Part shown: positions 27,001 through 30,000 of the stretch, piece by piece
Position numbering within the stretch: the first letter of the stretch is position 1
Layout: each line of letters opens with the position of its first letter
Assembly: GCA_019358915.1 (NCBI GenBank)
Contig: JAHHIM010000036.1
Location: 1-64,000 of the forward strand
DNA: 64,000 nt
DNA from: Trichormus sp. ATA11-4-KO1
GTDB lineage: Bacteria; Cyanobacteriota; Cyanobacteriia; Cyanobacteriales; Nostocaceae
Direction: 5' to 3'
Position numbers: made by a program

Positions 27001-30000
27001 TAGTAAGGCGTGGATAGCACGAGCCATTACAGATTTTGCCGTACCGCGACGACCTGCGATCGCCACTCCCCCCAAACCTGGATCGACTGCTGCTAACAGC
27101 AGAGCTAATTTAATCGCTTCTTGACCGACTACGGCTGTTAAGGGAAAGGCGGTGATTGTGGGGTTGATAGTAGGCGCGGGCATGGTTAGCAAAATAGCTG
27201 GTCTCGGCTTTTAGCATAGCAATTTCTGGCACATTTAAAATAAGTAATATGAGAATTTAGGAGCAAGGTTATGAGTATTACTCAAACTAAACGTTTTACA
27301 CTCAATGAATACCACAGGCTTACAGAACTGGGTTTTTTCCACGAAGATGACCATATCGAATTAATTAATGGGGAAATTATTCAAATGGTATCGAAGGGTA
27401 AAGTCCACGAAACTTGTTTACGAAACTTGTTGCGGGAACTACCAAAACTTGTGGGAGATAGGGCGACGTTACAATCTCAAGCTCCGATTACCTTACCACC
27501 CAATAGCGAACCTGAACCAGATTTCGCAATTGTTAAAAATCGAGATGATAATTATCTTTCATCTCATCCTGTCTCTGTTGATATTTTACTAGTAATGGAA
27601 GTTGCTGATTCTTCCCTAGCTTACGACCAAGACATCAAAATACCTCTTTATGCACAAGCAGATATTTCTAATTATTGGATATTTAATTTATTTGATCATC
27701 ATCTGGAATGTTACAGTGAACCATATTTAGATAATCAAGGTAAATATGGCTATCTCAATAAGCGAATTGTTTTATCTAATCAATTAATAGCTTTGCCTTG
27801 TTTTCCTGATTTATCTCTCGATTTAAGTAGAGTATTTCCGCCAAAGTTGAATTTTTCAAGTTTATAGATATTGAGTAATAAGGTTTGCGTTTCTTCACAA
27901 ACAATTATCTTGACATCCAGTATCAGCTATGTAATTCTATACTTAAGACAGCAAAATAACCGCACTATAAAGCGCAGGTTTTTGGTGTTGTCTCAGCAGC
28001 AGAATTCCTAGTTTCCTGCCAAGCTTTGTGTTATCCCTTCGGCTGAATATTCAGCCTGATATCAGGTCAATTAGTTGACTAGACTTTCAAAGGGAAGATG
28101 AGGTATTTGGATGAATGTTCAGGAGAATGGATAACGCAAAACTTGGCAGGAAGCCAGGAATTCTACGGCTGAGACAGGAGCCAAAAAAAAGCGACAGCAA
28201 AAAGCTTAATAACAGGGAAATACTTTTTAAGTGTCAATCCCTTACCTCAAGCTATCCTACTGCTATATATGTGATTTGTTGAGGCTGTTCAGTTAACCAA
28301 AAAAACCTGGACATACTACAATGACAGACATTCATTTCAAATCAAAGGGACAAACACGCCAGCAGAAGCGTTTGGTTTCCATTTATTGGGACTATCAAAA
28401 TACTAGATTAAGTCTAGAGCAAGCCAAATTATTGCTAGATTTTGCCAAATCTAAAGGGTGTATAGTTAGCAAAAATGTCTACTATAATTCACAGCATCAA
28501 GATCAAGCTGCGGCAAAAAATGATATGGCCAATCTTGGTTTCAACTATCTGAATGTTCCCTGTTCTCTGAAGAATAGCGCAGATAACCAATTAATAGCCG
28601 ACTGCTTAGAGGAGATTTATAGCAATACTTCTTCAGATATATTTATCCTTGTATCAGGAGATGGAGATTTTGTAAAATTGGTTCATAGTCTGCAAAAATT
28701 AGGCAAACAAGTTATCATCTTTGCTCAATTAGGTAATGTAAAACAGAAACTGATAGAATTGGCTGATGAATTTTACTTTGTAGACAAGTTACTTGAGTTA
28801 GTAGAGCAAAATAACCCACCTCAAACCACTGCTATTGAGTCCCAGATTAATTACAATGAGGCTATAGAGTGTTTGATTGCAGCTATCAACACTGTCTTAA
28901 TCCAGGGTAAGCGTACATTATTTAGTAATATTGATAAATTAATGCGTCAAATTTGTGTGAATTACAAAGGATATTCTTCTATTTCTAATCCTACTGGGAA
29001 GAAATTCAAATCCTTTAGTCAATTTGTGGATTTCGCTGTAAAAACTGGTAAAATTCAAACAAAAAATCAAGAGTTGTTTTTAATTGATCTAGAAAAAATA
29101 ACTGCATAAGCTTTATGTTTTAAAAACCCAGTTTATTGTCTTCACTGGGTTTACTGACTAACGCCGCTATTGCGGCTTTTTCGTGCTTAAAAAGTTACAC
29201 TTGTACAACTTCCCAACAGTCAATTTTAGCAACAATACAAGTCATAAAAATGCACAAACTTCTAAGATTCCGTGATGAAAAACTTTTACGTCGCGCACTT
29301 ACCCACCGTTCTTATGTTCATGAAAACCCAGGCGAAGGCGAACACAATGAACGTCTAGAATTTCTTGGTGATGCTGTGTTGAATTTCTTAAGTGGTGAAT
29401 ATCTCTATCGCCGTCATCCAGAAAGAGGAGAAGATGAATTAACTAGACGACGTTCGGCGCTGGTGGACGAGAAGCAACTAGCCAAGTTTGCTATTGAAGT
29501 GGGTTTAGACTTCAGGATGCGGTTAGGGAAAGGTGCAATTCGAGATGGAGGCTACCAAAATCCTAATTTGCTCAGTAGTACTTTTGAAGCAGTTATTGGT
29601 GCTTACTATCTGGATAATGATTCCCATATTGAAGCAGTGCGCGCAATTATAGAACCGTTATTTGATGCTGTACCTGAGCAAATTGTTGTCTCTCGGTCTA
29701 ATGTAGACTCAAAAAATCGCTTTCAAGAATGGGTACATCGCCACCTTACGCCTAATCCTCCCAAATATGTCACACTTCAAGTCGGCGGTTTGTCTCACGC
29801 GCCAGAATTTGTTGCTAAAGTCTTAGTAGATGAAAAAGAATATGGAGAAGGTAAGGGACGCAATAAGAAAGACGCTGAGAAAGCGGCGGCCGAAAATGCG
29901 TTAGCTAAGTTGCAAAAACAAGGGTTGTTGTTATAGAGATTTTGGGTGTTGCATAAATACGGGATAAAGGTATATTCTTTGCGTCTTTGCGCGCCAGTTG

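Follow-up and report, generated by a model that had tools for sequence, protein, structure and literature searches.

In Escherichia coli, RNase III cuts its own rnc-era mRNA in the 5′ UTR and destabilises the message (passages in PMC8708148), and RNase III of Staphylococcus aureus and Streptomyces likewise acts on its own mRNA (passages in PMC5829567). Self-control through the leader recurs in unrelated phyla, as in the absB (RNase III) operon of Streptomyces coelicolor and in S. aureus rnc (PMC5829567, same passages). A hairpin cut by RNase III can also stand before another ribonuclease gene: in the rpsO-pnp intercistronic region of E. coli the cut lowers pnp and leaves the upstream gene unaffected (a section of PMC8708148). 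Among cyanobacteria, autoregulation of RNase III was not observed in Synechococcus PCC 7002, according to passages of Gordon et al. 2018. A term search of a 2022 review of cyanobacterial RNA decay returned no passage that ties autoregulation to RNase III. The main text of PMC12873609, which covers 811 conserved RNA structures from 202 cyanobacterial genomes, mentions neither rnc nor NYN; its supplement may list the element described below. Our literature search turned up no account of an rnc leader in cyanobacteria.

We describe here a candidate leader of this kind from Trichormus sp. ATA11-4-KO1, within a window of 64,000 nucleotides (the whole stretch of DNA that was analysed). The features are collected in Table 1. 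An earlier note on this DNA had reported a single-copy 186-nt hairpin with a folding energy of −101 kcal/mol; we recomputed −101.2 kcal/mol and found the hairpin at one place in the 5.97-Mb genome (G000). Its 5′ end GUCUCAG and 3′ end CUGAGAC close the main stem. The strong fold reported earlier was recovered with altered figures: instead of about 68 bp there are 76 pairs, of which the main stem has 65 and two small apical hairpins have the other 11, and instead of z = −14 we obtained z = −12.0 (MFE of −110.7 for 27980-28185 against −53.7 ± 4.7 in 200 shuffles, none of them as stable). In the fold of that segment the last leader bases before the hairpin, UUGG, can pair with CCAA directly 3′ of it, extending the stem. 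RNase III needs a helix of roughly two turns or more, a length that the 65-bp main stem exceeds. The 3′ end of the hairpin lies 145 nt before the ATG of an NYN-domain ORF that is followed by rnc, an arrangement also given in the note and borne out by the Pfam and TIGR02191 matches of Table 1. Next to the hairpin the plus strand reads AGGAGCC and then a run of A, and the minus strand AACACC. The sequence agrees with the note that no T run follows on either strand, and the terminator scan did not list the hairpin; an intrinsic (Rho-independent) terminator was ruled out because no U run directly follows the stem. A Uma2 gene lies upstream of the hairpin in the window.

Table 1. Features of the hairpin leader, the nuclease gene and rnc, with positions in the window.
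Feature	Position	Strand	Basis or details
Predicted sigma-70-type promoter	27910..27938	+	-35 TTGACA 27910-27915; 17-nt spacer; TGn 27930-27932; -10 AATTCT 27933-27938
Predicted leader 5′ end, ~45 nt	27945..27989	+	alignment of 62 upstream regions
Small conserved stem in the 5′ leader, followed by a T-rich run on the minus strand	27960..27977	-	terminator scan, alignment
Hairpin, 186 nt	27990..28175	+	fold, copy count, alignment/covariation, covariance-model matches
Leader 3′ part, 145 nt, conserved	28176..28320	+	downstream alignment
NYN-domain (PIN-like) nuclease gene, 262 aa	28321..29109	+	Pfam PF01936, 1.1e-27
Two terminator-like hairpins between NYN and rnc	29126..29186	+	terminator scan (second hairpin), alignment by eye
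rnc (RNase III), 228 aa	29250..29936	+	TIGR02191, 2.2e-66; Pfam RNase III and dsrm

The closest described structure, rncO, is much shorter than the single 65-bp stem of this 186-nt hairpin. We found no sequence or model similarity between the two. Rfam includes an rncO family; in a cmscan of 26500-30500 (E ≤ 10) no Rfam family reached its threshold, and the best, a plant miRNA-precursor family, scored 46.6 bits where its gathering score is 245. On the hairpin, miRNA-precursor and CsrB models gave look-alikes below threshold, which we put down to an effect of shape. Gene order differs as well, since the first gene behind the window hairpin is the nuclease gene and not rnc, and terminator-like hairpins precede rnc. 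The likeness lies in the logic proposed here: in rncO, the leader of rnc-era-recO in E. coli and Salmonella, the RNase III cut destabilises the whole message (passages in PMC8708148 and in a preprint). By analogy, we propose that the window hairpin works like rncO while being unrelated to it. The structures of the S. coelicolor absB and S. aureus cases, both from other phyla, are reportedly unrelated to it too.

The named Nostocales loci compared here are the best 80 of the 487 rnc relatives found, and 79 of them were assessable; inverted repeats were sought in all 80 by self-BLAST, and 17 loci were folded. Strains of Nostoc, Tolypothrix, Calothrix and Nodularia are among the named records. 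In 61 of the 79 a covariance model matched on the rnc strand, upstream of the gene, and three further loci (L021, L027 and L067) carry hairpins of ~200 nt and diverged sequence at the same place. The diverged-type hairpin of L021 occupies a single place in its genome (G151). Among 150 other genomes of the order the model matched in 15, from 6 of the 38 families sampled, and every match there adjoins NYN and/or rnc. Both samples uphold the earlier claim that the hairpin keeps its place on the rnc strand, ahead of the gene, in different families. With filters off, the model also matched in two genomes of another order (L122 and L123). Under strict filters it gave no match outside the order in the class sample, which is a lower bound because the filters-off model and folding detected the L122 and L123 hairpins; an exact repeat search with 9-nt seeds had overlooked both. 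The hairpin stands upstream of rnc whether an NYN gene, a short NYN gene, an HNH gene or a remnant intervenes, and rnc is its constant partner in six families of the order and in another order. The gene does not need the hairpin, since rnc is present without it in 14 of the 79 assessable loci, one of which (L039) retains only a remnant of the 5′ arm (z = 0.3). No such hairpin was found at the second RNase III gene of the Trichormus genome.

Hairpin length varied across loci from 87-133 nt up to 247 nt. The closing stem is far better conserved than the remainder, and the apical half shows no sequence conservation. The closing pairs, previously described as invariant, are not: GUCUCAG/CUGAGAC was present in 50 of 62 hairpins (the 61 loci plus the window), and the other 12 include covarying variants. 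The diverged ~200-nt hairpins and the covarying closing stem show that shape, not sequence, is maintained. Compensatory changes were abundant in the covariation alignment (A1), in which 29 of 47 pairs had changed on both sides and 96.2% of cells were paired, compared with 32-48% when the partners were slid; none of 500 shuffles reached any of these measures, which are read with the proviso that A1 was picked by the closing-stem motif and the structure was derived from A1 itself, both of which favour the structure. These changes indicate a structure at the RNA level. G·U combinations far outnumbered A·C combinations (266 against 32 cells; 26 against 5 columns), and rnc-sense RNA is therefore the selected strand. 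The sense strand also gave the more stable fold in 53 of 62 and in 14 of 15 cases, so the strand bias noted before holds. The hairpin is thus a selected RNA structure of the rnc-sense strand.

The promoter of Table 1 would start transcription at about 27945-27947, judging from its sequence. The pattern TTGAC[AT], a spacer of 17-19 nt including TGn, and nAnnnT was found in 54 of the 62 upstream regions (61 loci plus the window), and the end of the -10 hexamer lies 51-57 nt from the hairpin base (64 nt in three loci). A generic promoter scan did not list this promoter because the -10 hexamer scores under the threshold of the tool. A conserved promoter at a set distance places the hairpin near the 5′ end of a transcript and strengthens, at the level of sequence, its reading as a 5′ leader element. 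The predicted leader 5′ end is strongly conserved and begins GACAGCAAAA in most loci. It includes a small stem that the scan listed as resembling a minus-strand terminator, at one and the same position, in all three loci scanned (the window, L024 and L080). All six pair positions of this stem are standard in 49-55 of 62 sequences read as the minus strand, against 6 of 62 at two positions read as the plus strand, so that by sequence it looks like an antisense terminator. Beyond the hairpin, the 3′ part of the leader is shared, as far as the start codon, by loci of the NYN and HNH types, and a 7-bp hairpin (28286-28292/28307-28313, pairing read from the sequence) ends 7 nt before the NYN start codon.

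Several other readings of the leader were set aside. Assigning the hairpin to the upstream Uma2 gene as its 3′ end was rejected because the distances to the promoter and to the downstream start codon are fixed whereas that to Uma2 varies from ~120 to ~870 nt, and Uma2 is missing in some loci. A small ORF at 28115-28282, starting in the 3′ arm, was discarded since leader indels are not multiples of three (alignment by eye). A minus-strand TTGACA at 28237-28232, considered as part of an antisense promoter in the 3′ leader, was not conserved in the same alignment. An integron-like cassette site was rejected too: no integrase is present, and conservation of the leader extends as far as the start codon whichever cassette type follows.

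The gene behind the leader encodes a protein with an NYN domain at 19-154 (PF01936, 97.8 bits, cut-off 24.2) and a C-terminal domain of ~85 aa without a family match. Nothing credible was found for the C-terminal domain in Pfam; we take it to resemble a small winged-helix (LOTUS-like) domain. In the structure model (pLDDT 83) the NYN domain superposes on the MARF1 NYN and on VPA0982 with Foldseek TM scores of 0.73-0.83, normalised to the target. A literature search for 'alr0279' found no mention. NYN orthologues are intact in most loci with 40-78% identity, and rnc has 73-99%. The gene after the leader is exchangeable: it is NYN in 53 loci and a 78-aa HNH endonuclease in 10, exemplified by L080:2750-2986 with matches to HNH_5 (PF14279, 50.1 bits, cut-off 27.5) and HNH (PF01844, 42.6 bits, cut-off 21.4). 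Of the 63 loci that carry NYN, HNH or NYN remnants, 62 had the hairpin, as did only 3 of the 16 that carry none of these (counting L009, which has an HNH fragment only); this co-occurrence is not a statistic, because the loci are related and a single deletion can take out both. Hairpin and nuclease gene were absent together in 12 loci retaining rnc. In one genome (G145) the promoter-hairpin-NYN unit is duplicated; both hairpins follow an extended -10 promoter and precede NYN genes, and the duplicate is not directly followed by an rnc gene of its own. The hairpin belongs primarily, as its leader, to the nuclease gene behind it, NYN or HNH.

The rnc product matched TIGR02191 with 223.5 bits (cut-off 166.25) and has the Pfam Ribonuclease_3 and dsrm domains. 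The ORF list gives a longer frame from TTG 29136; since stops occur upstream of MHKLL in most of the 80 loci, translation most likely starts at ATG 29250 (MHKLL...). Between NYN and rnc, the first terminator-like stem (29126-29132/29144-29150) is followed by UUU and the second (29163-29167/29172-29176) by five U. The scan listed the second in the window and in L024. By eye, NYN-type loci conserve both, and HNH-type loci have analogous pairs. For the earlier placing of the hairpin in a joint NYN-rnc mRNA there is evidence on both sides: the conserved promoter appears to read into the hairpin and NYN and rnc almost adjoin in one genome (G245), but in the window the nuclease gene and the two terminator-like hairpins separate the hairpin from rnc.

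From these patterns the hairpin is probably a handle by which RNase III limits expression of the nuclease-rnc gene pair, and RNase III is likely to cut it. Our preferred reading, held at about even confidence, is a cis-acting leader structure cut by RNase III, with control of the nuclease gene and feedback on rnc by read-through. A transcript would start at the conserved promoter ~45 nt upstream of the hairpin and encode the nuclease (NYN here, HNH elsewhere), and rnc would be reached by read-through from the leader promoter. Cutting of the 65-bp stem would remove the 5′ structure and leave a 5′-monophosphate, partly single-stranded end; this end could be attacked by 5′-end-dependent RNases (E, J), so that the message would decay faster at high RNase III activity. 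The outcome would be negative control of the nuclease gene, with feedback on rnc only as far as transcription passes the two terminator-like hairpins. The comparisons above show the structure, its RNA-level selection, the strand, the synteny with rnc and the promoter motif; where transcription starts, that RNase III cuts, that message stability changes and that rnc is co-transcribed are what we infer.

The swapping of the nuclease, the duplication and loss of the hairpin together with it, and the terminator-like hairpins before rnc make 'RNase III regulates itself' one of two live readings. In the other, which we consider unlikely, RNase III cuts the hairpin but regulates the nuclease gene only; rnc would be expressed on its own and transcription would mostly stop at the terminator-like hairpins. 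The shared neighbourhood would then merely keep enzyme and target together, and a potentially harmful nuclease would stay low. Promoter, hairpin and nuclease do behave as one unit, as the G145 duplication and the 12 loci that lost it while keeping rnc attest; unrelated nucleases follow the same leader, and terminator-like hairpins come after the nuclease gene in both types. The rpsO-pnp case, a ribonuclease gene behind an RNase III-cut hairpin with pnp not next to rnc, matches this arrangement; its hairpin is short and the last step of control involves PNPase itself. Against restriction to the nuclease stands the distance of only 12 nt from NYN stop to rnc start in G245, which makes a compact operon there. 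By eye, moreover, no -10-like (TAnnnT) hexamer occurs in the 70-85 nt from the second terminator-like hairpin to the rnc start, and the link to rnc persists in two orders, including where a vapBC-like pair is inserted between (G055). We judge it improbable that the hairpin works without RNase III, as a 5′ stabiliser or as a binding or cleavage site of another protein, for example the NYN protein. Stable 5′ structures are general mRNA stabilisers, the C-terminal domain of the NYN protein has no assigned family, and the greater conservation of the closing stem (50 of 62) than of the rest suggests sequence-specific recognition. A 65-bp helix is nevertheless far beyond what a stabiliser needs and lies ~45 nt from the predicted 5′ end, and the constant neighbour is a dsRNA-specific enzyme. 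The NYN protein cannot be the obligatory partner, since the hairpin is retained where HNH replaces NYN.

A hairpin that forms all or part of a separate RNA, either a stable dsRNA released from the leader, such as a decoy titrating RNase III, or one of a sense/antisense pair whose antisense member crosses the hairpin and ends at the minus-strand stem at 27977-27960, seems highly improbable. The minus-strand pairing of the small stem, its T run and its recurrence in all three loci scanned fit the antisense version, and the conserved closing stem may be a mark for cutting out the entire hairpin; yet we found no conserved antisense promoter (by eye, the candidate at 28340-28313 keeps a -10-like hexamer and not a -35), the G·U bias identifies the sense fold as the selected one, and the unconserved apical half argues against a trans-acting RNA with fixed targets. 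An element acting as DNA or by mobility and having no RNA function (a miniature inverted-repeat element, a recombination site or a cruciform) is extremely improbable and largely refuted. Nostocales are rich in hairpin-forming repeats, and the MITE-like dispersed ones are likewise long, near-perfect intergenic inverted repeats, some within the same loci (e.g. L029, L076 and L059). Unlike them, the window hairpin is single-copy (as is that of G151), syntenic at a fixed place across families, covarying and strand-biased, and no transposase or integrase gene lies beside it; selection on duplex DNA cannot produce a strand-asymmetric G·U bias. Distinctly improbable, finally, is a module of promoter, hairpin and nuclease that watches RNase III: the nuclease would be transcribed from a strong promoter but silenced, its message being destroyed by RNase III through the long leader helix, and would be made once the enzyme is inhibited or overwhelmed by dsRNA. 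Phage infection, for example, would then release the nuclease, to the harm of cell or invader. Such a module would explain the adjacency of rnc, the swapping of nucleases, the duplication and deletion of the whole unit, the faster evolution of NYN than of rnc and the nuclease-type neighbours (Uma2 upstream, the vapBC-like pair in G055); from databases, its sole support is the domain-level similarity to defence-system profiles returned by PADLOC.

New in this analysis are the conserved promoter, the swappable nuclease, the joint loss of hairpin and nuclease, and the terminator-like hairpins before rnc. Under our preferred reading of a leader cut by RNase III, a covarying, single-copy 186-nt helix beside rnc with a predicted promoter offers a concrete natural candidate substrate of the enzyme. 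In cyanobacterial engineering, the helix could find use as an expression tag that depends on RNase III. It would be a well-supported addition to the few cis-regulatory RNA motifs of the phylum, and the exchange of NYN and HNH behind one leader raises the question of whether RNase III is used to restrain nucleases.

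Read as plus-strand RNA, the 186-nt inverted repeat GUCUCAG...CUGAGAC folded into a single hairpin of -101.2 kcal/mol. Of its 76 base pairs, the main stem accounts for 65 and two small apical hairpins for the other 11. Adding 10 nt of flanking sequence at each end brought the minimum free energy to -110.7 kcal/mol (z = -12.0), against -53.7 +/- 4.7 kcal/mol for 200 dinucleotide shuffles, none of which was as stable (0/200). The sequence was found once in the whole 5.97-Mb genome. One long, stable, single-copy hairpin is also what an earlier note on this DNA had described. No Rfam family matched it at threshold; the far sub-threshold look-alikes, mostly miRNA-precursor models, are due to its shape.

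Features around the hairpin (window coordinates unless a locus is named; promoter elements and transcription start are predictions)
Feature	Position	Strand	Remark
Mg-chelatase D-like gene	25147-27192	-	
Uma2-family gene (restriction-endonuclease-like)	27271-27867	+	
Predicted extended -10 promoter elements	27910-27915 and 27930-27938	+	conserved motif
Predicted transcription start	near 27945-27947	+	about 45 nt 5' stretch before hairpin
Small conserved stem	27960-27977; L024 1821-1804; L080 2406-2389	-	terminator scan, alignment
Hairpin	27990-28175	+	
NYN-domain gene	28321-29109	+	begins 145 nt after hairpin
NYN C-terminal part (residues 175-262)	28843-29106	+	
Terminator-like hairpin 1	29126-29150, then UUU	+	between NYN and rnc
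Terminator-like hairpin 2	29163-29176, then U5	+	terminator scan, window and L024
rnc	ATG at 29250 most likely	+	directly after NYN gene
Histidine kinase gene	3' of rnc	convergent	

The rnc frame in the ORF list starts at TTG 29136. In-frame stop codons lie upstream of the conserved MHKLL in most of the 80 rnc loci compared, therefore the ATG is the most likely start, and the longer ORF is probably an artefact. From the NYN stop to this ATG there are 140 nt. Most named loci share a Uma2 gene upstream, in the same orientation, and its distance varies from about 120 to 870 nt. The Uma2 gene of the window matched the candidate defence profile PDC-S03 (1.3e-17). In locus L059 the Uma2 gene is interrupted by a 166-nt inverted repeat (1419-1584), with residues 1-116 before it and 116-195 after; this is probably a hairpin repeat that inserted there.

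The loci were collected as relatives of the rnc product, one genome per species, and the best 80 of 487 were used, all Nostocales-type as judged by record titles. When each 6.8-kb locus was compared with itself, without use of a motif, the strongest local inverted repeat fell upstream of rnc in most of the 80. A covariance model built from an alignment of 51 hairpins matched 61 loci upstream of rnc and on its strand (E <= 5e-10), and L055 weakly. L021 and L027 (identical there) and L067 were model-negative, yet each had, at the corresponding position, a roughly 200-nt hairpin whose sequence has diverged (-96 to -111 kcal/mol). The L021 hairpin, single copy in its genome, resembles the low-scoring model matches of L062, L031, L063 and L007, and both sequence types therefore intergrade. 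Other genomes of the same order (Cyanobacteriales) had a model match in 15 of 150, spread over 6 of the 38 families sampled; on the better-scoring strand all 15 preceded NYN and/or rnc, rnc being visible in two genomes only in a longer flanking stretch. These results bear out the earlier claim that the hairpin is kept upstream of rnc, on the rnc strand, in many Cyanobacteriales of different families. A class-wide run of the model with strict filters gave no match outside the order. Searching with the NYN protein revealed, in two genomes of another order, a short NYN gene immediately before rnc, and in both the model, run with filters off, picked up a hairpin in the gene orientation (E 2e-8 and 3e-6 for this small search) with the shared closing motif GUCUCA/UGAGAC. 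One of these two hairpins, that of L122, folded at -75.8 kcal/mol (z = -6.6).

The closing pairs had been called invariant; they are highly conserved only, as the stem GUCUCAG/CUGAGAC occurs in 50 of 62 hairpins (61 matched loci plus the window) and among the remaining 12 are covarying variants, for example GUCUAAG/CUUAGAC. The consensus fold of the 51-sequence alignment has 47 pairs, 29 of them with changes on both sides. Paired cells made up 96.2%, versus 32-48% with partners slid by 1-3 columns, and 0/500 covariation shuffles reached any of five measures, for sequences picked by the closing-stem motif and scored on a structure derived from the same alignment. G·U pairs filled 266 cells and A·C 32, with G·U in excess in 26 columns and the reverse in 5, an asymmetry that selection for a DNA duplex, or for the RNA of the opposite strand, would not produce. 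Single-sequence folds agreed with the earlier observation that the rnc-sense RNA is the more stable: this held in 53/62 (means -94.0 vs -84.5 kcal/mol) and in 14/15 genomes of the order sample. The helix is conserved rather than its sequence.

The 75 nt 5' of the hairpin are conserved about as well as the hairpin itself. In 54/62 they hold TTGACA and, after a spacer of 17-19 nt that ends in TGn, a hexamer nAnnnT, whose end lies 51-57 nt before the hairpin base (64 nt in 3 loci). By its sequence this motif is a predicted extended -10 promoter. The main doubt raised earlier was whether the hairpin is part of the NYN-rnc mRNA at all; the conserved motif favours a place in the leader, on sequence grounds. 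Conservation extends through the 145 nt 3' of the hairpin as far as the start codon; a 7-bp hairpin in this stretch stops 7 nt short of the NYN ATG. A small conserved stem lies between the predicted transcription start and the hairpin. Its six positions are all paired in 49-55 of 62 when read as minus strand; read as plus strand, two positions are C·A/A·C and pair in only 6/62. A T-rich run follows on the minus strand, terminator-like in the three loci scanned (window, L024, L080). The stem resembles a terminator acting in one direction only, on an antisense RNA that would cross the hairpin; a conserved antisense promoter for such an RNA was sought and none was found.

NYN was present in 53 of 79 assessable loci (L070 was left out, its upstream sequence being too short); the gene was full-length in 45, about 160 aa long in 5, 102 aa long in 1 and a remnant in 2. 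The hairpin is there in each of the 53. Ten of the 79 (L080 at 2750-2986, L015, L031, L039, L040, L047, L062, L065, L067 and L071) have the same slot, behind the same leader, filled by a gene for an HNH endonuclease of 78 aa (Pfam HNH_5, 2.6e-13), and nine of these have the hairpin, the exception, L039, keeping a 5'-arm remnant only (z = 0.3). HNH also occupies the slot in L098, and L063 retains an apparent HNH start just upstream of the NYN start codon. L009 has an HNH fragment and lacks the hairpin; a hairpin without a nuclease gene occurs in L007, in L074 and, in weak form (87 nt, z = -4.4), in L055; 12/79 have neither. A search of 16 loci, L059 not among them, found no promoter or leader similarity in 11 of these 12 or in L009. 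From these counts, promoter, hairpin, leader and nuclease gene were gained or lost together, with rnc always present; since the loci are kin and a single deletion could take all four parts, we give no statistic. Genome G145 has a tandem duplication, promoter-hairpin-NYN' followed by promoter-hairpin-NYN-rnc (locus L102, G145:C363:12500-19000; hairpins at about 1740-1935 and 3549-3741), with about 590 nt of repeat-rich DNA between copies whose NYN proteins share just about 35% and 54% identity with that of the window. In genome G055 (L103, G055:C1:3855000-3863000) a vapBC-like small-ORF pair lies between a short NYN and rnc at 3297-3985; judged by sequence, its second ORF resembles a PIN/VapC-type toxin.

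NYN orthologues are mostly intact, single stops in 10 of 11 flagged alignments being natural shorter C-termini, and diverge faster than rnc (40-78% vs 73-99% identity). The NYN protein was modelled with a pLDDT of 83, and its model could be superimposed on the NYN domains of both MARF1 and VPA0982. A small alpha/beta domain of its own spans residues 175-255, and the C-terminal part was confidently modelled as three helices plus a beta-hairpin. This domain had no family match in profile searches and is absent from the 148-180-aa forms of several lineages. Defence-system profiles gave domain-level matches only. Proteins of other orders of the class (L110-L119; open frames of 440-500 aa, not beside rnc) share 30-35% identity with full NYN including this domain and may represent a longer paralogous architecture.

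Whether rnc shares the leader transcript affects what RNase III could control. The two terminator-like hairpins after NYN in the window, conserved by eye in NYN-type alignments and with analogous pairs after HNH, would suit a transcript that stops before rnc and leaves only the nuclease gene under RNase III. In favour of a shared message, NYN stop and rnc ATG are just 12 nt apart in genome G245, and no -10-like hexamer was seen by eye in the 70-85 nt before rnc. We hold control of the nuclease gene alone to be the less likely of the two versions.

Across two orders the constant neighbour of the hairpin is rnc, whichever gene intervenes. Long double-stranded RNA is the substrate of RNase III. 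The second RNase III gene of the window's genome has no comparable structure upstream; heptamer tandem repeats there (L107:999-1067, G000:C5) form short inverted repeats and are an ordinary cyanobacterial repeat without a long hairpin. In E. coli, according to a passage of PMC8708148, RNase III cuts the rnc-era mRNA in its 5' UTR and destabilises it. The relevant passage of PMC5829567 reports the same action on its own mRNA in S. aureus and Streptomyces, and states explicitly that autoregulation was not observed in Synechococcus PCC 7002. The E. coli cleavage is the closest precedent. The literature searched, which included the main text of a 2026 cyanobacterial RNA-structure survey, gave no description of a cyanobacterial rnc leader. 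In the logic we propose the hairpin would work like rncO, to which it is unrelated; unlike rncO, it precedes an exchangeable nuclease gene. rncO is also several times shorter. RNase III cleavage, the stability effect and read-through are all steps that we infer. Because the enzyme of double-stranded RNA is the constant neighbour, the helix is kept over its sequence and E. coli offers a precedent, the most likely mechanism, to which we give an even chance, is that RNase III would cleave the 65-bp leader helix, that the message would then decay faster, and that read-through into rnc would make this a feedback on rnc itself.
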